64,000 nucleotides of DNA from Candidatus Latescibacterota bacterium (GTDB lineage Bacteria; Krumholzibacteriota; Krumholzibacteriia; WVZY01; JAKEHA01). The number at the start of each line of letters is the position of its first letter. Position 1 is the stretch's first letter. The notes under the pieces were generated by a model, which did not search any database, was not told the DNA's origin, and saw nothing but the letters and a program-made list of their open reading frames with translations. Positions 2,642 to 64,000 of this stretch are shown here, piece by piece. The position numbers and the translations under genes are program-made. The stretch spans positions 192,218 to 256,217 of the forward strand of contig CAVTNQ010000005.1 in NCBI GenBank assembly GCA_963736125.1, written 5' to 3'.

Positions 2642-3451
2642 GTGAGCCAGCTCCGTCTCGGCGCCGCCGACTTCATCGCCAACCGGCCGCTCGTGTGCGG
2701 GCTCTCGAACGGACACGCCAACGGGGCGTGCCTCACCTTCGAATCCCAGGCCACCCTGGTCGACTCCTTCGAACGCGGTCGCTACGACGCCGTGCTGATG
2801 CCGAGCATCGAGTACCTCCGCGGCGCGGGGCGCTTTCTCCTCCCGGGCCCCGCGCTGGTCGGACGCTCGGCGCCCGGCGGCATCGTGCTGGTCTCGCAGA
2901 AGCCGCTCGAAGAACTCAGGCGCGTCGCCGTGGGCGAGTGCTGTCGCACACCAGTCGCCGCCCTCCGCATCGTGCTCGCCGAACAGCAGCACGTCCTCCC
3001 CGACTTGCTGGTCGAGAAGCGCTTGAACGAAGACGACTGGCGCGACCGTTACGACGCCGCCCTGATCACGGGCGACGCGGCGTTGCGCGAAGCCGCCTCG
3101 CCCGCCACCGAAGGGTTGATCCGTTTCAACGTCACCGAGATGTGGAAGTCGCTCACCAAGACCCCGCTCGTGCATTCGGTGTGGGTGTGCGACGAAGAAT
3201 CGCGCCTCGACGAGATTCGCACCACACTCACGACGCTGTGCGCATACGGCCTCGAGCGACTGGCCTCACTCGCCGAAGAAATCGCCGCCCTGCTTTCGAT
3301 GGACGCGATGGTCGCCTACGACTATCTCACGCGCGCGTGGTCCTACGACCTCGGCAGCGCGGAGATGGACGGGCTTCGTGCGCTCTCCGACTTCGCGCGC
3401 AAGTACGACTTGGTGCGCGCGAGTCGCTTCACGAACGTCGTCAGCGCCTAG
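2642..3451 (+). CDS. MqnA/MqnD-family protein (chorismate dehydratase-like). This is a second paralog.
   Basis: 269 aa. LRLGAADFIANRPL...DAVLMPSIEYLR matches the MqnA pattern (RIGxIPYLN...SSIEY). It resembles the mqnA at 21836. Confidence 0.65.
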   Translation: MSQLRLGAADFIANRPLVCGLSNGHANGACLTFESQATLVDSFERGRYDAVLMPSIEYLRGAGRFLLPGPALVGRSAPGGIVLVSQKPLEELRRVAVGECCRTPVAALRIVLAEQQHVLPDLLVEKRLNEDDWRDRYDAALITGDAALREAASPATEGLIRFNVTEMWKSLTKTPLVHSVWVCDEESRLDEIRTTLTTLCAYGLERLASLAEEIAALLSMDAMVAYDYLTRAWSYDLGSAEMDGLRALSDFARKYDLVRASRFTNVVSA

Positions 3452-19850: not shown

Positions 19851-21050
19851 ATGTTTCACACCGTCCACGGCATCACCTTCTCCGACCGCAGCCTGATCCC
19901 GATTTGGGAAAAAGTTCGTGCGGGTGAACGAATCTCGCCCGCAGAAGGCGTTCGCCTCTTCGAGTCCGACGACCTGACGGCGGTCGGTCGCATGGCCGAC
20001 CACGTCGCGCGTGCGCGAAGCGGCGACCGCGTCTACTTCGTCATCAATACCCACGTCAACCCCACGAATGTATGTGTGCTGAACTGCAAGTTCTGCGACT
20101 ACGTCCACAGTAGGAACGACGCGGGCGCGTGGGAGATGACGGTGGACGAAATTCTCGCGCACATTACACCCGAGATGACGGAAGTCCACATCGTCGGCGG
20201 CCACCACCCCGACTGGACCTTCGAGTACCACGAGAACTACATCCGTGCCATCCGCGAAGCGCATCCGCACATCCAGATCAAGGCCTTCACCGCGGCGGAG
20301 ATCGATTACTTCGCCAAGCGCTGGAAGCTCTCGGTCGACGAAATCTTGGATCGACTGATCGCGGCGGGACTGAATTCGATGCCGGGCGGCGGCGCGGAAA
20401 TCTTCTCGAAGCGCATCGCCAAAGAATTGCGTTACATCGGCAAGGCGCAGAGCGACCGCTGGCTTGAGATTCACGCCGCGGCGCACGCGCGCGGGATTCC
20501 GTCGAACGCGACCATGCTCTACGGCCACATCGAGACGTACGCGGAGCGCGTGGAACATCTGCGGCTGTTGCGCGAGCAGCAGGATAAGAGCGGCGGATTC
20601 CTCGCCTTCATTCCGCTCGAGTATCAAATCAGCGCGGAGAAGATCGTGCCGCGGCACGCGACAGCACTCGACGACTTGAAAACGATCGCGGTGTCGCGCT
20701 TGATGCTGGACAACTTTCCGCACGTGAAAGCGTACTGGATCATGCTGCAGGAAGACACGGCCGGCATCGCGCTCAATTTTGGTGCGGACGACGTCGACGG
20801 AACGATAGCGAAGGAACGTATCGCGCACGCGGCCGACGCGCGCAGCCCCGTCGGCGTCACGCGGAAGAAGCTGGTGCGACTGATTCGCGACGCCGAGAAG
20901 ACGCCGGTCGAACGCGACGCCTTGTACAACGTGGTCAAGGTCTACGAAGACGCCGACGTGGCGGCGGTGGTGGAAGACACCTATCGTCCGGTGCAGCGCA
21001 GCCGCGAATCTCCCCGCGCCGGCGCACCGTTGGCAAAGAACGTGAGCTGA
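19851..21050 (+). CDS. Radical-SAM menaquinone biosynthesis enzyme of the MqnC/MqnE family (cyclic dehypoxanthinyl futalosine synthase or aminofutalosine synthase).
   Basis: NPTNVCVLNCKFCDY (Cx3Cx2C), GGHHPDW, and the MLYGHIET...FIPLEYQ motif are shared with CofH/MqnC/MqnE. Confidence 0.85.
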   Translation: MFHTVHGITFSDRSLIPIWEKVRAGERISPAEGVRLFESDDLTAVGRMADHVARARSGDRVYFVINTHVNPTNVCVLNCKFCDYVHSRNDAGAWEMTVDEILAHITPEMTEVHIVGGHHPDWTFEYHENYIRAIREAHPHIQIKAFTAAEIDYFAKRWKLSVDEILDRLIAAGLNSMPGGGAEIFSKRIAKELRYIGKAQSDRWLEIHAAAHARGIPSNATMLYGHIETYAERVEHLRLLREQQDKSGGFLAFIPLEYQISAEKIVPRHATALDDLKTIAVSRLMLDNFPHVKAYWIMLQEDTAGIALNFGADDVDGTIAKERIAHAADARSPVGVTRKKLVRLIRDAEKTPVERDALYNVVKVYEDADVAAVVEDTYRPVQRSRESPRAGAPLAKNVS

Positions 21051-21835: not shown

Positions 21836-22615
21836 ATGATTCGCATCGGAAAGATTCCGTACTTGAACAGCATCTTGTTCTATCACGGCCTCGAGAACGA
21901 GCCAGACGTTCGCTTGGAATCGCTCGTCCCGCGTGCGCTTTCCAGCGCCGCGCTCGAAGGCGAAGTCGACGCGGGTCCGGTTCCGCTCGTGACGGCGTGG
22001 GAGATCGAGGATCGCTTTGCGCCGCTCGGCGACTTCTGTATCTCCACCATCGACCGCGCGCACAGCATTCTCTTCTTCTCGAAGCGCCCGTTCGATCAGC
22101 TCGACGGCGCCGAGATCGGCGTTACCAACCAAACTTCGACGTCGGTGCGCTTGCTGCGAGCTCTGCTCACGCACGCCTGGCGCGTGCGCCCCGCGCGCTT
22201 CACGCACGTCGACTGGCCCACCAACGACGCGTTCCTCCTGATCGGCGACGAAGCGCTGGTGCACCGGCGGGGTGTGAAGGACTATCCGCACGTCGCCGAC
22301 TTGGGCGACGTGTGGCACAAGTGGACCGGACTCCCGTTCGTGTTCGCGCGTTGGATGGTTCGCACGTCGCTCGCCGACGCCGACAAGGCGCGCTTGATCA
22401 CGATGCTCGATCAATCACTCGCGGAAGGGTGGACGCATTTCGAGCGCGTGGTGTCGCCGCGCGCGCACGACCTCCACATGACGATCGAAGAAATGCGCGA
22501 GTACCTGCAGGCGTTTCGCTTCCGCATGACGGCCGCCGAGCACCAGGCGATCGGGAAGTTTCGCCAGTTCGACGACGCGGCGCGTAAAGCGGACAGCGCG
22601 CCCGTCGCGCCCTAG
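21836..22615 (+). CDS. mqnA: Chorismate dehydratase MqnA (futalosine pathway).
   Basis: MIRIGKIPYLNSILFYHGL is the classic MqnA N-terminus. It is the periplasmic-binding-fold type. Confidence 0.85.
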   Translation: MIRIGKIPYLNSILFYHGLENEPDVRLESLVPRALSSAALEGEVDAGPVPLVTAWEIEDRFAPLGDFCISTIDRAHSILFFSKRPFDQLDGAEIGVTNQTSTSVRLLRALLTHAWRVRPARFTHVDWPTNDAFLLIGDEALVHRRGVKDYPHVADLGDVWHKWTGLPFVFARWMVRTSLADADKARLITMLDQSLAEGWTHFERVVSPRAHDLHMTIEEMREYLQAFRFRMTAAEHQAIGKFRQFDDAARKADSAPVAP

Positions 22616-32199: not shown

Positions 32200-33312
32200 A
32201 TGCTGGACACGATTCGCACCAAGATCGAACGCGGCGAGCGCATCACGCGCGACGAGGGCCTGTTCCTCCTGCGCGATGCTCCTCTGCTCGAATTGGCCCC
32301 GCTCGCGATGGCGACGCGCTGGCGGTTGAACCCCGAGCGCCGCGTCACGTTCGTCATCGACACCAATCTCAATTACACCAACACCTGCGACGCGTTCTGC
32401 GCGTTTTGTGCGTTCTATCGGACACCGGGACAGCAGGGCGAATACACCTACACCATCGAGCAGATGATGGAGCAATTCGCACGCGCGCGTGAGATGGGCG
32501 TCACCACCGTGCTCCTGCAGGGCGGGCTCAACAGCGCGATACCGTTCGAGTACTACCTCGACTTGGTGCGCACGACACGGGAGCGTTTCCCCGACGTTCA
32601 TCCGCACTTCTTTTCGGCGCCCGAAGTGATGAAGATGACCGAAGTGTCGGGCCTATCGCTCGACGAAGTCATCGCGCGCCTCTACCGTGCCGGCCTGCGC
32701 TCGATTCCCGGCGGGGGCGCCGAGATCTTGACCGACCGCGTGAAGCAGGAGATCTCGAAGCTGTGGCCCAAGGGAACCACCAAAGATTGGGTCGACGTGC
32801 ATCGCGCCGCGCACAAGGGCGGCATGCGTTCGACCGCGACCATGATGTACGGCCACATCGAGACCGACGAAGACGTGATCGAACACTTGGACGTCGTGCG
32901 CGCGCTGCAGGACGACACCGGCGGATTCACCGCCTTCATTCCGTGGAGCTACAAGCGCGACCAGAATCCGCTCGCGCGCCGCGTGACGACCGAAGCGGGG
33001 CCCAATCGATACCTGCGCATGATCGCGGTGTCGCGCATCTACCTGGATAACATCCAGCACGTGCAGGCGTCGTGGTTCTCGGAAGGAAAGAAGACCGGTG
33101 TCGTCGCGCTCCATTTCGGCGGCGACGATTTCGGCGGCACCATCTTCGACGAAAACGTGATGCAGGAAGCCGGCTTCTATAATAGAACCACCATCGACGA
33201 GACCGTGGCACTCATACGCGACGCCGGCTTCGCCCCCGCCCAGCGCACGACGCTGTACGAGATCGTGCGGGCGTTCCCCGTGAGTGAGTTGGCGTCGTCG
33301 CGAAGCGCCTAG
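32200..33312 (+). CDS. Radical-SAM menaquinone enzyme, MqnE/MqnC family. Tentatively aminofutalosine synthase MqnE because of its CofH-like CxFCAF motif.
   Basis: NYTNTCDAFCAFCAFY (Cx3Cx2C), GGLNSAIPFEYY, and MMYGHIETDED...FIPWSYK. The assignment to E versus C is inference only. Confidence 0.85.
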   Translation: MLDTIRTKIERGERITRDEGLFLLRDAPLLELAPLAMATRWRLNPERRVTFVIDTNLNYTNTCDAFCAFCAFYRTPGQQGEYTYTIEQMMEQFARAREMGVTTVLLQGGLNSAIPFEYYLDLVRTTRERFPDVHPHFFSAPEVMKMTEVSGLSLDEVIARLYRAGLRSIPGGGAEILTDRVKQEISKLWPKGTTKDWVDVHRAAHKGGMRSTATMMYGHIETDEDVIEHLDVVRALQDDTGGFTAFIPWSYKRDQNPLARRVTTEAGPNRYLRMIAVSRIYLDNIQHVQASWFSEGKKTGVVALHFGGDDFGGTIFDENVMQEAGFYNRTTIDETVALIRDAGFAPAQRTTLYEIVRAFPVSELASSRSA

Positions 33313-33351: not shown

Positions 33352-34482
33352 TCAATGATCGTCGGGACGCTTGGGCAGCGGTGTGGTTCCGTCGTCGTCG
33401 GGCGGCCCGATGGGAATAACGAACACCGGCCCGCCGAGTTTGTCCAAACCCCACTTGGCTAGCTCTCGAAGGTCGACCTCCTCGAACTTGACCAGCGTGA
33501 ACGTCGGATAACAATCCTCTCCGGTTTCACGCACGTGCGGGTCGTTGCACGGATCAAGCTTGCCTCCCGTGCGAATGAAATAGTCGAAGGCCATTCCATG
33601 AATCGTGTTCGTGCAGGGGTCTTCACCCGGCACCGGCTTGCGTCGTCCCCAACAATGCAGCATTGCGACTTCTCGCGCCTTCTCCGGGTCGACCGGCGGC
33701 ACCTTGCAGGATTCTGTCCCGGGCTCGGCGGGATCCGCCACTTCAGGATCGAGACAACCGTTCAGCTTGTCGAGAAACGCTTTGCACTGCGGGTTGTTCC
33801 ATCCATCTCGATTGCACTCGCCCACGAACTCGCTGACTTGCTGGCAGAGACTCTCCGATTCGCGCGTCGGACGAGCCACGCCGGTATTGCCGCCCGGGGG
33901 GACGTAGTCGCCCGGCTCAGAGGGCTCCGAGTCGGGCCCCCACATCTCGTCCGCCCAGAATTCCAACTCGGCTTTCTCCTCATCTGTCAGACCGCCCTTA
34001 GCTTTCTGGTACTGCGCGTACGCCTGGGCTCTAACCTTCTGCATCTGTGCTTTTTCGAAGTCGGCGCGTTTCTGCAAGTCGAAGGAAGCAAGTTGAGCAC
34101 CCGCCGTCAGGTACATCATGTACCACTGCTGGGCCGACGTGAACTCGGAGCTGTGTTCAACCGGCGCGTTGCTGTTCCAGTCGCCGTAACAATCCGACAA
34201 CCGAACCCCGTCGCTGCCCGGCATGAGATCGAGCGCATCCAATCCGGTTCCCGACAAGTCGGGCGGCATCAGCGTTGCGCAGTCCTTGATGGCGTCTTCG
34301 ATCTTCTTGCCGCCTTGCACCTCTTGAGCGACGCAGTCCTCGAAAGAACCTTCCTTGACCAATCGACCTGAAATCATGAGAACGAGGGGCCCGCGCCTTT
34401 GACCTGCGGATGGGGGCGAACACGTGAGCGTGGCAACGATGAGCAGGGCAAGCGGGACGCGGACGAGGAAACTCTTTCGCAT
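33352..34482 (-). CDS. Secreted/lipoprotein-like cysteine-rich hypothetical protein.
   Basis: A GGGAGG RBS precedes the ATG at 34482. The signal is MRKSFLVRVPLALLIVATLTCS. About 14 Cys are present. No known domain was recognised. Confidence 0.6.
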   Translation of the reverse strand: MRKSFLVRVPLALLIVATLTCSPPSAGQRRGPLVLMISGRLVKEGSFEDCVAQEVQGGKKIEDAIKDCATLMPPDLSGTGLDALDLMPGSDGVRLSDCYGDWNSNAPVEHSSEFTSAQQWYMMYLTAGAQLASFDLQKRADFEKAQMQKVRAQAYAQYQKAKGGLTDEEKAELEFWADEMWGPDSEPSEPGDYVPPGGNTGVARPTRESESLCQQVSEFVGECNRDGWNNPQCKAFLDKLNGCLDPEVADPAEPGTESCKVPPVDPEKAREVAMLHCWGRRKPVPGEDPCTNTIHGMAFDYFIRTGGKLDPCNDPHVRETGEDCYPTFTLVKFEEVDLRELAKWGLDKLGGPVFVIPIGPPDDDGTTPLPKRPDDH

Positions 34483-34613
34483 GGCTTTACCTCCCGGGTG
34501 AAAGACCATGTCTCCCGCGGCGAGTATAGACCCCGACCGCGCGAGCCCATACAAACATTTTGTCACCGGGGTGGGGGGCGCCGTATCCTCCCCACGAACC
34601 AGAGGAGGTCCCC

Positions 34614-35966: not shown

Positions 35967-36010
35967 CCGGGGGGTTGGCAGGCGCGTAGGCGCGTGCTAG
36001 TATTTCCGCC

Positions 36011-37027
36011 ATGAAATCGCAAGTGGGCGCAACACCGGTCAAGCCGGCGGTTTCGGCCAAGACACCGGTCACCGCATTCCTTCGTCATCATTTCCGCCAT
36101 TTCAACGCGGCCGCGTTGATCGACGCGGCGGATGCGTACCGTCATCACCTCGACGGTGGCGGCAAGATGATGGTGACGATCGCCGGTGCCATGAGCACGG
36201 CCGAGCTCGGCATCTCGCTGGCCGAGATGATCCGCCGCGACAAGGTCCACGCCATCTCGTGCACGGGTGCCAACCTCGAGGAAGATGTCTACAACCTCAT
36301 CGCGCACGACTTCTACGAGCGCATTCCCAATTATCGCGACCTCACCCCGCACGACGAGAAGCGCCTGCTCGATCGTCATCTGAACCGAGTGACGGACACG
36401 TGCATTCCGGAAGAAGAAGCGATGCGTCGCCTGGAATCGGCGGTGCTCGAAGAGTGGATGCGCGCCGACAAGAAGGGCGAGCGTTACTTCCCGCACGAAT
36501 TCATCTTCAAGGTGATTCGCTCCGGCGCGCTCAAGCAGCACTACCAGATCGATCCGAAAGACTCGTGGATCACGGCCGCGGCGGAGAAGAACCTGCCGAT
36601 GGTCGTGCCGGGGTGGGAAGATTCGACGCTCGGGAACATGTTCGCGGCATCGATGATCCGCGGCGACGTCAAGAATCCCGGCACGCTGCGCTCCGGGGTC
36701 GAATACATGGTCGACCTCGCCAACTGGTATCAATCGACGGCGGCCAAGTCGTCGATTGGGTTTTTCCAGATTGGTGGCGGCATCGCAGGCGACTTTCCGA
36801 TTTGCGTCGTTCCCATGATCCACCAAGACCTGCGTCGCGAGACGCGCGTGTGGGGCTACTTCTGTCAGATCAGCGACTCGACCACGAGCTACGGCTCCTA
36901 CTCCGGGGCCGTGCCGAACGAAAAGATCACGTGGGGCAAGCTCGAGGTCGGCACGCCGCGCTTCGTGATCGAATCCGATGCCACCATCGTCGCCCCGCTC
37001 ATTTTCGCCATCGTCCTTGATTGGTAG
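36011..37027 (+). CDS. Deoxyhypusine synthase-like protein (homospermidine synthase family).
   Basis: TIAGAMSTAELG...SCTGANLEED...FQIGGGIAGDF are typical of the DHS-like NAD-binding family. Confidence 0.85.
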   Translation: MKSQVGATPVKPAVSAKTPVTAFLRHHFRHFNAAALIDAADAYRHHLDGGGKMMVTIAGAMSTAELGISLAEMIRRDKVHAISCTGANLEEDVYNLIAHDFYERIPNYRDLTPHDEKRLLDRHLNRVTDTCIPEEEAMRRLESAVLEEWMRADKKGERYFPHEFIFKVIRSGALKQHYQIDPKDSWITAAAEKNLPMVVPGWEDSTLGNMFAASMIRGDVKNPGTLRSGVEYMVDLANWYQSTAAKSSIGFFQIGGGIAGDFPICVVPMIHQDLRRETRVWGYFCQISDSTTSYGSYSGAVPNEKITWGKLEVGTPRFVIESDATIVAPLIFAIVLDW

Positions 37028-37033
37028 GTTGAT

Positions 37034-37477
37034 GTGCGGCGGATGTTGGAACTCGAGCCGCCCCTCGCAGTGCGAATGGCCACGCTCGCGAAGCGCGTGG
37101 TACGGGTGCTACTCGCGCTCTCGGTAGGAGCACTTGGCTGCGGCGGTTCGGGAGACCTGCCGCTCGACCAAGTCGACCCCAACGCCGCGCCCAGCAATCC
37201 CACCTACGACCAGGTCTTCGCGCTCATGCACAATAACTGCACCAACTGCCACACCGGCGGCGACGGGGGCGAATATGTGCTGACGCGGCGCGCGACCACC
37301 AGCAACGCGACTCCCGATCTGTCGAACTGCGTGCAGATCGTCGCGTTCGCCGGCGACATCCTCGACCAAGTCGATCGCGACCTGATGCCCCCGGGCGCGA
37401 TGCCGCGTTTGACTAGCGCCGAAAAGCTCCTCATTCGTCGCTGGGTAGAGAACGGAGCACCCGCACCGTGCAATTGA
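37034..37477 (+). CDS. Monoheme c-type cytochrome, probably a lipoprotein.
   Basis: The signal is LLALSVGALGCGGSG. The single CxxCH is HNNCTNCH. DLMPPGAMP is a candidate Met ligand. It overlaps the downstream gene by 10 nt. Confidence 0.65.
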   Translation: MRRMLELEPPLAVRMATLAKRVVRVLLALSVGALGCGGSGDLPLDQVDPNAAPSNPTYDQVFALMHNNCTNCHTGGDGGEYVLTRRATTSNATPDLSNCVQIVAFAGDILDQVDRDLMPPGAMPRLTSAEKLLIRRWVENGAPAPCN

Positions 37478-38886
37478 AGCGGGCTCTGGGCATCGCCGTC
37501 ATTCTTGCGCTCGCGGCCGCTGCACTCGGGCGTGTGGCTCAAGCCCTCCCGCAATATTCGGCGCAGGCGGGTCGCACGTGCGACGACTGCCACATCTTGC
37601 CGGATTGGGACACGCCGAAGTTCGCGAGCCGCAAGCGCAACATGTCGTGTCAGACTTGCCACGTCGACCCGGCGGGCGGCGGCATGCGCACGACGGCGGG
37701 TCGCTACTACGGTCGCGCGACGCTAGCCATGATCGCAACCAGCCCGCGCCCCATGGACGACTGGGATCACAACTTCCCGGGCCTGGGCCGTCGCGACAAG
37801 GCGACGCCATACAACGACTACATGCCGGTTGGCCCGCACAACATCGCGCAAGCCGTCGCTTATCGCGATTCGCTCCACGACAAGTGGGCGTGGGGATTGC
37901 CGAAGGGCGAAACGCCCAACGCGCCCTTCCCGGGACGCTACGCGAAACTCAACCCCGACCCGATTCTGCGCATTGGCGCCGACCTTCGCTTCGCGACGCT
38001 GATCTCACAATCGACGCTCATGTTCCCGATGCAGTTCGACATCGGCACCGTGTTTCATCCCATTCATCACGCGACGGTGCTCATGAACATCGGCGCGCGC
38101 GGCCAGTCGAGCGGCTACTCCGACACCATCGACGACTCGCATTCGCCGTATTTTCGCGAGCTGTTCGCGATGACGAGCGAGTGGCCCTACCAGGCCTACG
38201 CGAAGGCGGGGCGCTTCGTGCCGTCGTTCGGGCTGCGGCTCGACGACCACACCACGCGCACCCGACGCGAGTTCGAGCTCGACGGCTCGTTGCCCGACAC
38301 GCGCGTGCTCGGCGTCGAAGTGGGGGCGGTGGCCAGCTATCCCTTCGTGCAGGCGTCGTACTTCAAGTTGCCTTCGAAGTACCAGGAGCCGGACCCGTGG
38401 GACATCTTCGACGTCGGCGATGGATGGGGCGCTGCGCTCAACACGGGCTGGCGCGATCTCGGGTGGTCCATCGGCGGGAGTGCGATGATTCGACGACGGC
38501 CGCTCGACCAAGGCGGCGACACCGACACGTACGGGCTCTACGGCTCGCTCAACCCGTGGTACTACGCGCAGCGCATTCCGCTGACGCTGCAAGGCGAGAT
38601 CGACTTCGGTACGTTCCAGCGCATCAGCGGCGTGCAAGCCGACAAGCTCGTGTGGTACGGCGAGCTCGACTGGCGAATTTGGAACGGCGTCAACATGCTG
38701 GTCGCGTACGATTGGACCGACCCCGATCGCGACGTGATCGACGATCAATCGGGGCGTTACCAATTCGGCGGACAGCTGGTCATCATTCCGGGTGTGACGC
38801 TCGATGGCCGCGTTCGTTTCCTCGACGTGACCCCTCCCGAAGGCGACGGCACGGATTTCTTCATGCAAATGCACATCTGGTTCTAG
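37468..38886 (+). CDS. Fused cytochrome-porin (Cyc2-like). An N-terminal diheme segment is followed by an outer-membrane beta-barrel.
   Basis: A signal peptide is present. CDDCH and CQTCH fall within the first 65 residues. About 400 aa of alternating amphipathic strands follow. The C-terminus ends ...FFMQMHIWF (OMP signature, terminal Phe). Confidence 0.7.
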   Translation: MQLKRALGIAVILALAAAALGRVAQALPQYSAQAGRTCDDCHILPDWDTPKFASRKRNMSCQTCHVDPAGGGMRTTAGRYYGRATLAMIATSPRPMDDWDHNFPGLGRRDKATPYNDYMPVGPHNIAQAVAYRDSLHDKWAWGLPKGETPNAPFPGRYAKLNPDPILRIGADLRFATLISQSTLMFPMQFDIGTVFHPIHHATVLMNIGARGQSSGYSDTIDDSHSPYFRELFAMTSEWPYQAYAKAGRFVPSFGLRLDDHTTRTRREFELDGSLPDTRVLGVEVGAVASYPFVQASYFKLPSKYQEPDPWDIFDVGDGWGAALNTGWRDLGWSIGGSAMIRRRPLDQGGDTDTYGLYGSLNPWYYAQRIPLTLQGEIDFGTFQRISGVQADKLVWYGELDWRIWNGVNMLVAYDWTDPDRDVIDDQSGRYQFGGQLVIIPGVTLDGRVRFLDVTPPEGDGTDFFMQMHIWF

Positions 38887-41537: not shown

Positions 41538-42374
41538 CTAGACCCAGAGGATGTCGAGGTTGGGAAGAGCCGTGAGAAGGCCGCGCTTCACGGCCCGAGA
41601 GTAGAGAGTCTCGAGAGCCCTTCGACCCTCGTCTCCCATGTCGACGGTGTCGTCGTTCACGTACATGCGGACGAACTTGCGGCAGACCTCGCGTTCGACG
41701 CCCCGCCCGAACTGCATCGCGTAGTCGACCGCGTCCTCTTCTTCGCTGTGCGCGAGCTGAATACTCTGCTTGAGCGCCCGCGCGACGGCGTCCATGGTGG
41801 CACTGCCGAGGCCGCGTCGAACGACGTCGAGGCCGAGCGGGATCGGGAGTCCGGTGTCTTCCGTCCACGCCGCTCCCAGATCGACGACGACCTGGAGCCC
41901 GCTCGAAGGCCACGTGAGCTGGCCTTCGTGGATGACGATCCCCGCGTCGACCTCGCCGCTCGCGACGGCTCCCATAATCTTATCGAAGTCCATCATGACG
42001 GGCGTGATCTCGCCGGGGACATAGAGTCGAAACAGGAGGTAAGCGGTCGTGCGCGGACCCGGCACCGCGACGCGCCGGCCGGCGAGTTCGGAGACCGAAT
42101 AGGGTTCGCGAGCGAGCACGATCGGGCCGTAGCGACGGCCCACCGACGCCCCGCACGACATGATTCGATATAGGTGCTGGATCTCGGGGTAGGCCGCGGC
42201 CGAGATCGCCGTCACGTCCAGCTCCGCTCCGTGCGCGCGTCGATTCAGCGTCTCGATGTCGTCGAGCACGTGGTCGACCCGATAGCCCGGAACGGCGACA
42301 CGCCCCGACGCGAGGCCGTAGAACATGAATGCGTCGTCGGCGTCGGGACTATGACCGATGGAAAGCGTTTTCAT
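41538..42374 (-). CDS. mqnD: 1,4-dihydroxy-6-naphthoate synthase MqnD (futalosine pathway).
   Basis: LSIGHSPDADDAFMFYGL is the hallmark MqnD N-terminus. 278 aa. Confidence 0.9.
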   Translation of the reverse strand: MKTLSIGHSPDADDAFMFYGLASGRVAVPGYRVDHVLDDIETLNRRAHGAELDVTAISAAAYPEIQHLYRIMSCGASVGRRYGPIVLAREPYSVSELAGRRVAVPGPRTTAYLLFRLYVPGEITPVMMDFDKIMGAVASGEVDAGIVIHEGQLTWPSSGLQVVVDLGAAWTEDTGLPIPLGLDVVRRGLGSATMDAVARALKQSIQLAHSEEEDAVDYAMQFGRGVEREVCRKFVRMYVNDDTVDMGDEGRRALETLYSRAVKRGLLTALPNLDILWV

Positions 42375-60746: not shown

Positions 60747-61676
60747 TTAACCGTTGAGGAGGTCGGAGATTAGCGTTTGCGCACGGGCCTCCAGGGGTGA
60801 CCCCGGGAACTGGGATCGCACCAGTTCGAGGGTTCGGCGGGCCGAATCCACTTGGCCCGTTTCGTATTGGACCAAAGCCAGATTCAACAGCGCGGCGCCG
60901 TTTTGCGGGTCGGCCTCGAGGGCGGACTGCAGCAAGCGCTCCGCGCGATCGAATTCATCGGAGCGATAGGCGACGATCGCATCCAGCACGAGGAAGCGAG
61001 CGTCGTCGGAGAAACGCAGACGGGCGTCTTCGGCAAACAGGCGTGCCTGCTCGAGGTCGCCGGTAGCCAAGAAGCCGCTAATCAGCCAGTGCGCCACTTC
61101 CGGGTTGGCATCTTCGCGGTAGGCCCGCTTGAGCTGGAAGAGCGCGGCGGCGATGTTCTCGTCGCTTGCGACGATACCGCTACGATGGAGCGGCGAGGTC
61201 ATGGCGGCGGCGTCCTCGGTTCCCGGCAGGACGATCGAGCCCTCGATCGACGCGCTCACCGCGGCCTGCTGGAGAGGCGAGAAGTAGGGCTCGTAGCGGT
61301 TGCCACCTCGAATCCCGGACTGCCACCACACGACGGCGGCGACCAGAACCACCGCAACCGCCTCGCCCGCCAAGACGGGCGGCGCGAACCACCGAGAGCG
61401 CGACTTTGCGCGCGGTTTCCGCTCGACGGCGTCGTAGCCCACACTCCACTTGGCCGGCTTGGCGATCGAGCGCGCGAGCCGAATCATCTCGTCCGGCGCC
61501 CGGAACACGGAGGCGTCGGCGAGCAGGATCGCGCGGTAGCGAATCGCATCCAAGTAGCTATCGTGGCAGGCGTTGCACGAGCGGACGTGCTCGATCAGGA
61601 GAGCGCGGTCGGCCTCCGACATGGAGTCGTCGGCAAGTGCCGCAAGCTGTTCGTCGGTGAGGTGTAGCTCGGTCAT
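60747..61676 (-). CDS. Anti-sigma factor with an N-terminal zinc-finger (ZAS-like), a TM helix and a C-terminal TPR domain.
   Basis: HVRSCNACHD (H-x3-C-x2-C). One TM (AVAVVLVAAVVWW). TPR-like helices run to the end. Confidence 0.7.
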   Translation of the reverse strand: MTELHLTDEQLAALADDSMSEADRALLIEHVRSCNACHDSYLDAIRYRAILLADASVFRAPDEMIRLARSIAKPAKWSVGYDAVERKPRAKSRSRWFAPPVLAGEAVAVVLVAAVVWWQSGIRGGNRYEPYFSPLQQAAVSASIEGSIVLPGTEDAAAMTSPLHRSGIVASDENIAAALFQLKRAYREDANPEVAHWLISGFLATGDLEQARLFAEDARLRFSDDARFLVLDAIVAYRSDEFDRAERLLQSALEADPQNGAALLNLALVQYETGQVDSARRTLELVRSQFPGSPLEARAQTLISDLLNG

Positions 61677-61774
61677 AGCTGCTGGTTCCCGGGCGTCCTA
61701 AACGCCCGCGTCGAGTTCGTTCGCTGATCTAGAGACGGACCCCGCCGCCCGATTCCACGGCCATCTCGGGGATC

Positions 61775-62569
61775 CTAGTCGTCCCCCTCCCGCTCCAACA
61801 ACCGCCGGAGCTTGCGCAAGGCGCCATCCAGGATGGTGTAGACCTTGCGCTGTCCGGAAAGCCCGCGCTCTTCGGCGATCCGCTGCGCCGTCCATCCTTC
61901 CTCGAAGCGCATCCGCACGACCTCGCGCTCGTCGTCGGAGAGTTCGGCGAGTAACTCGCGCACGCGCGCCGCCATCTTGTCGATGCCGTCGCGCGTGAAG
62001 GCTTCGTCCGGATCGCCTTCGCCGCGCTCGCGCTCGAATTCCATGTGCTTCAAGTAGTCGAGCAGTCGGCCCGACACGACACCGAGCGCGGGGGCCTTGG
62101 CGTCGGATTCGAGGCGTCGCAGGTAGTGCTTGTCGACAGTGCCTTCGATCTTCAAGACCGCGTGCGCGACCATCTCGGCGTTCGCACGCGTACCGGCCGA
62201 GTGGAGCGACTGAATCACCGCGTCGAAGCCCAAGCCTTCGACGAAATGAAACTTGAACACGAGGCGCTCGAGTGGCGAGAGGTCATCCCAGCCTTGCGGG
62301 TTCTTGCGGCGGCCTTGGATGTGGCGAAGGTGATCGAGGGCCTTGCCGCGTGAGACGACGATGAGCCACGTCGACAATTCGGAGCTGCCGCGAAACTCGG
62401 AGAGCTTGCCGCGATAGAGCGATTCGAGGACATCCGCGAAGACGGTGCGGATGTCGTCTTCTTCTTCGGCGAAGAGCTGGCGTCGAATGACGCTGTAGAT
62501 CAACCCCGCATAGCGATCGACGAAGGCGTGCCAGTGCGCGGTCGACCCGCCCAGGACCATTTCGATCAA
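61775..62569 (-). CDS. ECF-type RNA polymerase sigma factor (sigma-70 family) with an insertion between regions 2 and 4.
   Basis: Region 2 is YAGLIYSVIRRQL...DVLESLYRG. Region 4 is REVVRMRFEEGWTAQRIAEERGLS. Confidence 0.75.
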   Translation of the reverse strand: MIEMVLGGSTAHWHAFVDRYAGLIYSVIRRQLFAEEEDDIRTVFADVLESLYRGKLSEFRGSSELSTWLIVVSRGKALDHLRHIQGRRKNPQGWDDLSPLERLVFKFHFVEGLGFDAVIQSLHSAGTRANAEMVAHAVLKIEGTVDKHYLRRLESDAKAPALGVVSGRLLDYLKHMEFERERGEGDPDEAFTRDGIDKMAARVRELLAELSDDEREVVRMRFEEGWTAQRIAEERGLSGQRKVYTILDGALRKLRRLLEREGDD

Positions 62570-62746: not shown

Positions 62747-62869
62747 CTATCGGGGCCGTTCCGCGGAGTCGATCTCGGCCGTGAGCGAGCGTCGCAAACG
62801 TGCGAGGCGAATGCAGTAGAGCCCCACTGCGATTACCACCGCTGCATATGCGGCGACCAACCAGCTCAT
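62747..62869 (-). CDS. ccmD: Heme exporter protein D (CcmD).
   Basis: 41 aa, MSWLVAAYAAVVIAVGLYCIRLARLRR. There is an ATGA overlap with the ccmC stop. Confidence 0.55.
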   Translation of the reverse strand: MSWLVAAYAAVVIAVGLYCIRLARLRRSLTAEIDSAERPR

Positions 62870-63576
62870 GACTTCGCTCCTTCCGCGCGCGACGCTTCCG
62901 CGTCGTCGCGAAGCACCTCCACGCGCGCGCGCAGTTTCTCGATCTCGAGGCGGCGTCGATATAACGCGACGAACAAGAGCGTAAACGCGAGGACGCACAC
63001 CCACAGCGTGTTCGCCATGCGCGGGTCGAGCCCCGAGCCCTCGCCGCCCGCGATGACGGGTTGCGGGTGCTGGGTCCGCCACCACCGAATCGCGAAGTAC
63101 ACCAACGGTACGTCGATGAAGCCGGTGACGCCAACCACGGCCGCGAGCACCGCGCGACGATCGGGCGCGTCGACGTAGCGTCGCAGCATGAGGTAGCCCA
63201 TGTAGATGAGCCACAGCACCAGTGTGAGCGTGAGGCGGGCGTCCCACGTCCACCAAATGCCCCATACCGGCTTGGCCCAGATCGGGCCCGTGATCAGCAC
63301 GAGAGTGGTAAACAGCACGCCGACTTCGGCCGCCGACAACGCGCGCGCGTCCCACTTGGGGTCGCGCGTGGCGAGATAACGAAAGCTGGCGAAAAATACG
63401 ATCGCGAAGCCCAAGAACGCGTTCCACGCCAGCGGAACGTGGAAGTAGAAGATCTTCTGCACGATCCCCATCTTGCTTTCGATAGGAGCGTAGAAAAAGA
63501 TCATGCCCACTGCCACCGCCATCGCGACGAACAGCGCGGCGTCGAGAATCGTGGAACTCACACGGCGTCGACCCAT
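62866..63576 (-). CDS. ccmC: Heme exporter protein C (CcmC).
   Basis: FYFHVPLAW... and the WGxxWxWD tryptophan-rich motif (WGIWWTWDARL). Confidence 0.9.
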   Translation of the reverse strand: MGRRRVSSTILDAALFVAMAVAVGMIFFYAPIESKMGIVQKIFYFHVPLAWNAFLGFAIVFFASFRYLATRDPKWDARALSAAEVGVLFTTLVLITGPIWAKPVWGIWWTWDARLTLTLVLWLIYMGYLMLRRYVDAPDRRAVLAAVVGVTGFIDVPLVYFAIRWWRTQHPQPVIAGGEGSGLDPRMANTLWVCVLAFTLLFVALYRRRLEIEKLRARVEVLRDDAEASRAEGAKS

Positions 63577-64000
63577 CTATTCCTCCAGCACGAATTCGAA
63601 CACGAGCAGCGACGCGGTCAAGAAGACCACGTCGTAGACTATCAGAAGCGTGAACCAGAACGAAGCGCTCTCCGTGTTGCCCAGGGCGAAAGACGTCGTC
63701 TCGACGGCGCCGATCAACGCCGGCACCGACAGCGGCAAGAACAGGAGCGGCAGCAGAAACTCGCGCATGCGCGTGTTGGACGCAATGGCCGAGAAGAGCG
63801 TTCCGCTGGCCGCAAACGCGAGCGAACCCAGCGCGAACGATGCCGCCATCGCCCACGCGCGCACGATCGACACGTCGAAGAAGATCACGAACAACGGTAG
63901 TGCCACCAGTTGCGTCGCGAGCAAGAACAGCGCGTTCGCGAAACACTTGCCGAGAAAGACGCCGGCCGGGTCGACGGGGGCCAAGCGCCAGCGCGCGACC
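63577..64000 (-). CDS. ccmB: Heme exporter protein B (CcmB), 5'-truncated at the window edge.
   Basis: It is a multi-TM protein, and FSAIASNTRMREFLLPLLFLPLSVP is typical of CcmB. It abuts the ccmC start. Confidence 0.75.
   Translation of the reverse strand, partial: VARWRLAPVDPAGVFLGKCFANALFLLATQLVALPLFVIFFDVSIVRAWAMAASFALGSLAFAASGTLFSAIASNTRMREFLLPLLFLPLSVPALIGAVETTSFALGNTESASFWFTLLIVYDVVFLTASLLVFEFVLEE

Follow-up and report, generated by a model that had tools for sequence, protein, structure and literature searches.

A candidate three-heme outer-membrane electron conduit formed by a diheme cytochrome-porin and a small cytochrome in Candidatus Latescibacterota

We analyzed a 64,000-nucleotide (nt) stretch of DNA from a Candidatus Latescibacterota bacterium (assembly GCA_963736125.1, contig CAVTNQ010000005.1, positions 192,218 to 256,217 of the forward strand; this whole stretch is hereafter called the window) and found two adjoining genes that may provide a route for electrons across the outer membrane. 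The first, open reading frame (ORF) A (37034-37477, +), encodes a monoheme c-type cytochrome and probable lipoprotein of 147 amino acids (aa) when read from the GTG at 37034. The second, ORF B (37468-38886, +), encodes a 472-aa protein in which a diheme cytochrome is fused to a predicted 16-strand outer-membrane β-barrel. We consider the chances slightly better than even that the two genes form a translationally coupled module encoding a three-heme outer-membrane electron conduit. The architecture of ORF B resembles that of Cyc2, the main genetic marker for inferring microbial iron oxidation from metagenomes. Judged from its sequence, ORF B is by the published definition not a member of Cyc2; it belongs to a separate, unannotated sister family of heme-porins, which has its own signature and includes monoheme and diheme forms.

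Heme sites and barrel of ORF B

Both ORFs showed a high third-position GC content, matching that of the other genes in the window. ORF B starts with a GTG, overlaps the 3' end of ORF A by 10 nt, and carries a GGAG about 10 nt upstream. Because its N-terminal MQLKR recurs among homologues, this start appears well placed. ORF A has an alternative start, an internal ATG at 37076, which would give rise to a canonical 22-aa lipoprotein leader. The overlap, the CTNCH and MPP motifs of ORF A, and the signal peptide, two CxxCH motifs, and ...MHIWF end of ORF B had all been described in the initial annotation of this DNA, and our analysis agrees with it on each of them.

Inspection of the ORF B sequence revealed a signal peptide (37468-37545, +; aa 1-26) consisting of Lys/Arg, a 16-residue hydrophobic core, and A-Q-A-L-P, with the predicted cleavage site between AQA and LP. 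The first heme site, CDDCH (aa 38-42; nt 37579-37593), is part of a Cyc2-like N-terminal motif, AQALPQYSAQAGRTCDDCH (37537-37593, +; aa 24-42). The second, CQTCH (aa 61-65), opens the family signature, CQTCHVDPAGGGMR (37648-37689, +; aa 61-74). Since cleavage would occur after residue 26, both motifs are predicted to lie in the mature protein and not in a cleaved or cytoplasmic region, a placement on which the initial proposal of a conduit depended. The six Cys and His residues of the two sites were invariant in 43 homologues (48-89% identity), as were about 100 further positions. Thus, with all six residues conserved, the CxxCH motifs do not appear to be fortuitous.

Homologues of ORF B are numerous. 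We found 177 of them at E ≤ 0.001 in a database clustered at 90%, all unannotated, and an exhaustive search detected 528 relatives among 50%-identity representatives. Those with a named source came from metagenome-assembled genomes of Candidatus Krumholzibacteria (54-70% identity), Latescibacterota, and Gemmatimonadota. A profile search with the superfamily profile (A2) expanded the family to more than 1,000 clusters and reached Ignavibacteria/Bacteroidota, Nitrospirae, and Myxococcales; the FCB group referred to below is the Fibrobacterota-Chlorobiota-Bacteroidota superphylum. The window protein matches P0001 with 100% identity, and its identity to 42 homologues is 48-89%.

The number of hemes varies within the family. 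In a set of 318 sequences of at least 340 aa, two CxxCH motifs were present in 188 (median 473 aa) and one in 118 (median 376 aa); the remaining 12, whose gene calls are truncated at the N terminus, have none. Heme 2 is the site conserved throughout the family, and its signature is CxxCH-[VI]-[ND]-P-x-G-G-G-x-R. This site was invariant in 306 full-length relatives, and C61, C64, H65, P68, GGG, and R74 were 96-100% conserved across monoheme and diheme forms. Heme 1 sits in an insertion of about 24 aa that is specific to diheme forms and absent from monoheme relatives. The family motifs were 88-100% conserved over the 306 relatives except for T262 in monoheme forms (64%), and the window protein carries the signature, FPMQxD, (D)DH(T), and the C-terminal His three residues from the end. 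In 78% of the diheme members, an extra Cys is found 4 aa before heme 2 (R-K-C-x-L-S-C-x-x-C-H), which could act as a heme ligand or as a disulfide partner. In the window protein, as in its closest relatives, Arg occupies the corresponding position (aa 57; nt 37636-37638), indicating that the extra Cys is dispensable.

We modeled the structure of ORF B using AlphaFold2 with a 43-sequence alignment. The model (predicted template modeling score, pTM, 0.69) contained 16 β-strands that close into a barrel spanning aa 166-472 (37963-38883, +) and ending in ...MHIWF, with a predicted local distance difference test score (pLDDT) of 75-90 over this range. The closed barrel expected in the initial annotation is therefore borne out by the prediction; its length is about 307 aa, not the 400 or so residues of β-strands estimated there. 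Between the hemes and strand 1 lie about 100 residues (aa 66-165) that belong to no strand. They include a segment rich in Pro, Asp, Arg, and Trp (37690-37962, +; aa 75-165), which showed low pLDDT and no regular secondary structure, contains many invariant residues, among them ATSPRP..DW, and may be a plug or a linker.

The best structural match of the barrel was OprP, with a sequence identity of 16%. Sequence searches of the PDB found no solved relative of the barrel and matched only the CxxCH motifs. Likewise, scans of ORF B against Pfam and NCBIfam gave only sub-threshold matches to CxxCH motifs (Paired_CXXCH_1, cytochrome c7/c3, NrfH) and none to the barrel.

It might be argued that ORF B serves as the sheath porin of a separate multiheme cytochrome in the manner of MtrB/PioB, or that its CxxCH motifs occur by chance and bind no heme, a reading that we regard as scarcely credible. 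All that speaks for it is the presence of a predicted outer-membrane barrel beside a cytochrome gene. We rejected the sheath porin, as ORF B has no Pfam MtrB_PioB match and is not a large barrel around a separate decaheme cytochrome, and the chance motifs, as heme site 2 is invariant across 306 relatives.

Within aa 27-165 of ORF B, the only His or Met residues conserved among the 43 homologues were the CxxCH histidines. We then compared the conservation of potential ligands in the barrel between the diheme and monoheme forms among the 306 relatives. M188 (38029-38031, +), which belongs to the FPMQxD motif in strand 2, was conserved in 100% of diheme and 94% of monoheme forms, and the same values were obtained for H261 (38248-38250, +) in the DDHT motif. 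H469 (38872-38874, +), located in strand 16 three residues from the C terminus, was present in 91% of diheme and 99% of monoheme forms. H201 (38068-38070, +) in strand 3 was found in 83% of diheme forms as compared to 9% of monoheme forms, which usually carry Lys, and thus tracks heme 1. Together, M188, H261, and H469 with the diheme-specific H201 appear to be the only conserved candidates for distal heme ligands in ORF B. Residues of the C-terminal strand would normally point alternately inward and outward, and on this pattern H469 and the invariant Q467 are expected to point into the lumen close to the periplasmic rim. Because the conserved candidates lie in the barrel, we infer that the hemes of ORF B are packed inside or against the barrel lumen and do not sit in a periplasmic domain of their own. 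The barrel is also very highly conserved, with a median pairwise identity of 57% in the diheme clade, which points in the same direction.

The partner cytochrome ORF A

ORF A has a hydrophobic leader followed by Cys36 (37139-37141, +), a candidate lipid-attachment residue that precedes a conserved (G)SGD. The lipobox was assigned by inspection of the sequence, and Cys36 was invariant in 15 and in 39 homologues. The heme-binding motif CTNCH (37238-37252, +; aa 69-73) has C69, C72, and H73 invariant. In the MPP motif (37385-37393, +; aa 118-120), M118 and P119 are invariant, and by analogy with the motif of Haem_bd/PSCyt1-type cytochromes, the Met is a candidate distal ligand. Other invariant residues of the ORF A family are C99 and, at the C terminus, C146. 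This pattern fits a monoheme lipoprotein with probable His/Met ligation and one probable disulfide.

The matches of ORF A itself to Pfam were below the cut-off (Haem_bd, PF14376, E 0.052; Cytochrome_CBB3, E 0.0036). Among its family members, Haem_bd matched 37 out of 39 (best 5.5e-5) and PSCyt1 (PF07635) 7 out of 39. In total, we found 76 ORF A homologues, many of which share contigs with homologues of ORF B. A number of them (for example, L001:7477-7917 and P0160) carry a variable poly-Asp/Glu insertion directly after CxxCH, which might bind cations; it is short in the window protein.

The pairing of the two genes, first noted in the window, turned out to be a conserved feature. An ORF A homologue lies directly upstream of ORF B, overlapping or abutting it, in all nine diheme loci examined (the window, L001, L122-L125, and L128-L130), with the wider neighborhood varying between them. 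The ORF B proteins of these loci are 23-78% identical to that of the window. A hidden Markov model (HMM) of ORF A recovered 8 out of 8 fetched diheme loci, and the ORF A profile had no match in the 120 canonical Cyc2 loci described below. Monoheme relatives were flanked by Haem_bd and/or PSCyt1 cytochromes in two of three loci. In L131 (4541-6580), a Haem_bd cytochrome (1.4e-43) overlaps the heme-porin gene upstream and a PSCyt1 cytochrome (6e-10) follows downstream. In L126 (5001-6955), a PSCyt1 cytochrome, which the ORF A HMM matches at 6e-4, is located two genes downstream. Neither type of neighbor was found in L127 (Nitrospirae). As the same partner pattern recurs around monoheme relatives, the module appears to consist of a heme-porin together with small cytochromes of the Haem_bd/PSCyt1 type. 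The few loci seen (two monoheme and nine diheme) each contained three hemes per module, either as 2+1 or as 1+1+1.

Relationship of ORF B to Cyc2

Cyc2 is defined by the sequence A-x-P-x-F-A-R-[Q/K]-[T/Y] before a single CXXCH, P-x-L after it, and a length of at least 365 aa; the first of these motifs was described as exclusive to Cyc2 and served as a filter for inclusion (PMC8406198). The protein is a 16-strand porin with an N-terminal monoheme domain, for which OprP/OprO served as the structural template (PMC8406198). Characterized examples come from Mariprofundus ferrooxydans PV-1, Acidithiobacillus ferrooxidans, and "Ca. Mariimomonas ferrooxydans" (PMC8406198, PMC13647500). We used QTGAACLSCHFQTFPALNAFGR, a peptide of the Mariprofundus ferrooxydans PV-1 Cyc2 listed in Table S1 of Keffer et al. 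(PMC8406198), to design a degenerate DNA pattern for FARQTGxxCxxCH, which located 120 loci in species-representative genomes, including those of Zetaproteobacteria, Gallionellaceae, Acidithiobacillus, and Chlorobiota. From these, we extracted 88 complete Cyc2 ORFs, a set that is biased to the exact FARQTG motif and may under-represent divergent cluster 2 Cyc2.

When compared with this definition, ORF B shares the signal peptide followed by an N-terminal CXXCH, the OprP/OprO-like 16-strand porin domain, and a length of at least 365 aa. It differs in the number of hemes: its two CxxCH sites are invariant, while 88 out of 88 Cyc2 proteins carry exactly one, as the initial annotation had anticipated. 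At the position of the Cyc2 motif, ORF B has ALPQYSAQA, which agrees at A, P, and Q and has Y where Cyc2 has F. A relaxed form of the motif, P.[FY]...[TYAS]G..C..CH, was found in 136 of the 318 family members. The family has a Pro at +3 after both hemes where Cyc2 has P-x-L. An HMM of the 88 Cyc2 sequences scored the best family member at 28 bits. In the alignment of ORF B to this HMM, AsAvPsFARQTGqaCsaCH was in register with the cleavage site and heme 1 of ORF B. Profile comparison by hhalign gave a probability of 93% over 46 N-terminal columns for the close family (A1), and 97.2% (E 3e-11) over 333 collinear columns for the superfamily profile (A2) against the 88 Cyc2. For the N-terminal motif without the signal peptide, it gave about 90-93% over 17-18 columns. 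The barrel alone scored 35 over 236 collinear columns, higher than reversed or block-shuffled controls (14-22). Thus, remote common ancestry of the ORF B family and Cyc2 is likely from these alignments.

A number of results weigh against the reading of the module as a conduit with a distant relative of Cyc2, and several of them concern the kinship of ORF B with Cyc2. The strict motif P-x-F-A-R-[QK]-[TY] was present in 0 of 318 family members, and P-x-L within 3-6 residues after CxxCH in 0 of 318 as compared to 83 of 88 Cyc2. Against the Cyc2 HMM, ORF B itself scored 15.9 bits, over the signal peptide and AQALPQYSAQAGRTCDDCH only. The signal peptide also contributes part of the whole-protein hhalign score, and the barrels compared on their own were only weakly similar (probability 26%). 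In addition, the N-terminal motif occurs outside Cyc2-type proteins. Residues 6-63 of PDB entry 6qvm_A, a "Multiheme cytochrome cf" (E 4.7e-6), correspond to aa 8-65 of ORF B, with a signal peptide, Y-A-x-x-x-G-x-x-CxxCH, about 17 residues, and CxxCH. Given this similar start, the motif alone is weaker evidence than the claim of uniqueness by Keffer et al. implies, and cytochromes may more generally begin with such a module. Other results bear on the function. In the AlphaFold2 model, the heme region (aa 24-165) had a pLDDT below 50, as is to be expected for a region modeled without its cofactors, and the model does not give the placement of the hemes. The barrel is conserved far beyond the needs of a passive sheath, so that its role might instead be catalysis or binding. 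In the window and the loci examined, the module was linked to no respiratory or metal-related genes. The family is common in lineages that surveys call heterotrophs, a misfit with a dedicated lithotrophic Fe(II) oxidase. Last, every database entry of the family is named "hypothetical protein." Of the Cyc2-type assignment made in the initial annotation, the fused cytochrome-porin architecture therefore holds, but the defining motifs, the HMM score, and the weak similarity of the barrels speak against it.

These comparisons also make it improbable that ORF B is simply a Cyc2 orthologue, that is, an already known outer-membrane Fe(II) oxidase detectable by FeGenie/LithoGenie. The shared architecture, the same best structural template, and the 97% hhalign value would agree with such an assignment. 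So would published surveys. With FeGenie/LithoGenie, "Cyc2" or "Cyc2-like" genes were reported for Krumholzibacteria, in a genome assembled from an iron-fed reactor (PMC7914226), and a survey of vent chimneys did so for Krumholzibacteriota, Gemmatimonadota, Eisenbacteria, Calditrichota, and Bacteroidota (PMC9769843). The genes reported from Krumholzibacteria/Krumholzibacteriota, Gemmatimonadota, and other FCB phyla may in fact belong to the ORF B family. Against orthology stand the missing motifs and low scores given above, the two hemes in place of the single heme of Cyc2, the family's own CxxCH[VI][ND]PxGGGxR signature, and the absence of the partner cytochrome from the 120 Cyc2 loci. The initial annotation had placed the conduit in a lineage where none had been characterized. 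This is correct with respect to biochemistry, but "Cyc2-like" HMM matches had already been reported there (PMC7914226, PMC9769843). In the literature that we searched, no paper dealt with the GGGxR signature, with conserved partner cytochromes, or with a Cyc2-type protein that has two hemes.

Possible functions, genomic context, and comparison with known systems

There is strong support for the prediction that ORF B is exported, receives its hemes through the Ccm system, and resides in the outer membrane as an OprP-like 16-strand barrel. We propose that its diheme segment would begin at the periplasmic rim, right after the site of signal-peptide cleavage, and pack inside or against the lumen. 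ORF A, as a His/Met-ligated lipoprotein, would dock at one mouth of the barrel, more likely the periplasmic one, with the cell surface as a possible alternative. Electrons could then be relayed via ORF A and the two barrel hemes between periplasmic carriers and soluble extracellular redox species. By analogy, the leading candidate activity of the module is oxidation of dissolved Fe(II), i.e., electron uptake, to which the precedent of Cyc2 and weak links of the partner type to PccH point. The menaquinone genes of the window, the occurrence of the family in heterotroph lineages, and the possible surface location of ORF A point to export.

In its full form, the export reading holds that a surface-exposed ORF A passes electrons to Fe(III), Mn(IV), humics, or a partner cell, the module being a miniature MtrCAB. 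The lipidation Cys of ORF A is invariant and is followed by a conserved S-G-D...D...D, which resembles acidic lipoprotein export signals known in Bacteroidota. Genes of the futalosine pathway for menaquinone, a quinone typical of metal reducers, are present in the window. Moreover, the N terminus of ORF B resembles the multiheme cytochrome 6qvm_A, and a Krumholzibacteria genome enriched in an iron-fed reactor had markers of both iron reduction and oxidation (PMC7914226). We nevertheless regard this reading as unlikely. Solid acceptors would be difficult to reach with as few as three hemes, the window and the loci examined showed no linkage of the module to a quinol dehydrogenase of the inner membrane or a multiheme carrier of the periplasm, and Cyc2, the closest relative of known function, runs in the direction of uptake.

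Alternatively, the barrel might be a redox enzyme, a sensor, or a gated channel, with hemes that are catalytic or sensory and do not form a conduit. Its enzymatic activity might be the detoxification of peroxide, superoxide, or nitrogen oxides at the envelope, or redox chemistry that serves iron assimilation. Such a role would account for the unusual conservation of the barrel, with its many invariant Asp, His, Arg, and Gln residues (FPMQxD, RLDDHT, DPDRD), and for the spread of the family in heterotrophs with no link to respiratory genes. The extra Cys before heme 2 in most diheme members would be a possible ligand. On the other hand, ORF B showed no similarity to a known heme enzyme (CCP_MauG, E 0.16), its PDB matches are limited to CxxCH motifs, and the obligatory small cytochrome partners suggest electron relay. 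Thus, we consider this reading quite unlikely and retain the conduit as the preferred one.

The wider window provides supporting context. System I ccm genes, which lie outside the module, are located at its end (62747-63984, -). They comprise a truncated ccmB (63577-63984; Pfam CcmB, 3.5e-17), ccmC (62866-63576; Cytochrom_C_asm, 1.7e-33), and a 40-aa ORF (62747-62869). The last encodes a membrane peptide that overlaps the ccmC stop in the position of ccmD and has no Pfam CcmD match. Of the ccmBCD genes named in the initial annotation, the first two are thus confirmed by Pfam, while ccmD is assigned by position and membrane character only. Directly downstream of the ccm genes (60747-62569, -) are a sigma-70-family factor, possibly of the extracytoplasmic function (ECF) type, and a zf-HC2/TPR anti-sigma factor. 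The latter is the only other CxxCH ORF in the 64 kb, and its CxxCH is a zinc finger, not a heme site.

Genes of the futalosine pathway are scattered over the window at 32200-33312 (+), 41538-42374 (-), 19851-21050, 21836-22615, and 2642-3451; two of them are supported by Pfam (MqnC/CofH-like radical SAM, VitK2_biosynth) and the other three by appearance only. Their presence suggests a menaquinone-based respiratory chain. A gene similar to deoxyhypusine synthase and homospermidine synthase (36011-37027, +) stops 6 nt short of ORF A, and a promoter and terminator scan detected a single promoter-like site (35975-36003), located upstream of this gene. The gene adjoins ORF A in the close relatives L129 and L130, an arrangement that distant relatives do not share. 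As its linkage, like that of OmpA/YiaD-like and KDPG-aldolase genes, is confined to close relatives, it reflects synteny of the clade and not membership in the module. A 404-aa Cys-rich secreted protein encoded at 33352-34566 (-) has no match in Pfam or NCBIfam.

The ORF B family combines the architecture of Cyc2 with one or two hemes and dedicated partner cytochromes, and lacks the motifs by which Cyc2 is defined. If electrons do cross the outer membrane by this route, many uncultured lineages regarded as heterotrophs would gain an unrecognized iron or extracellular redox route, and the "Cyc2-like" survey matches in these phyla, which may include the ORF B family, would need to be re-interpreted. 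The monoheme and diheme forms would then offer a natural test of the number of hemes required to span a 16-strand barrel. As the module is small, with two genes and three hemes, its expression in E. coli by the protocols established for Cyc2 should be feasible. Should ORF B be an envelope redox enzyme instead, it would represent a new type of heme-containing outer-membrane protein. As a tentative and rather doubtful generalization, these modules could form a distinct and widespread class of minimal outer-membrane conduits, in which lumen hemes ligated by the barrel act with one or two Haem_bd/PSCyt1 cytochromes and the hemes always number three. The kinship of this class to Cyc2 would be remote, and its mechanism would differ from that of MtrCAB. 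Its existence would also imply unrecognized extracellular electron exchange in abundant FCB-group heterotrophs of sediment and soil, namely, Krumholzibacteriota, Latescibacterota, Gemmatimonadota, and Ignavibacteria/Bacteroidota.

Among known systems, MtrCAB, PioAB, and MtoAB share with the proposed ORF A/B module the concept of an outer-membrane barrel and c-type cytochromes that move electrons across the membrane, and as in MtrCAB, where MtrC is a lipoprotein cytochrome, one component may be lipidated. The closest known kind of protein to ORF A are small monoheme cytochromes of the Haem_bd/PSCyt1/PccH type. As compared to OprP/OprO and other 16-strand general porins, ORF B has no Pfam porin match and carries an N-terminal diheme extension. 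Its closest counterpart is Cyc2, with which it shares a heme motif about 12 residues after the cleavage site, a similar overall size, an upstream motif (A-x-P-x-[FY]-...-G-x-x-CxxCH) of the same shape and register, and a predicted 16-strand barrel with OprP as the best structural match. In contrast to Cyc2, ORF B has two hemes, CxxCH-[VI]-[ND]-P-x-G-G-G-x-R in place of the strict motifs, about 100 additional conserved residues that precede the barrel and lie outside its strands, strong conservation of the barrel itself, including His and Met residues, and an obligatory adjoining small cytochrome of the Haem_bd/PSCyt1 type, which the Cyc2 loci lack.

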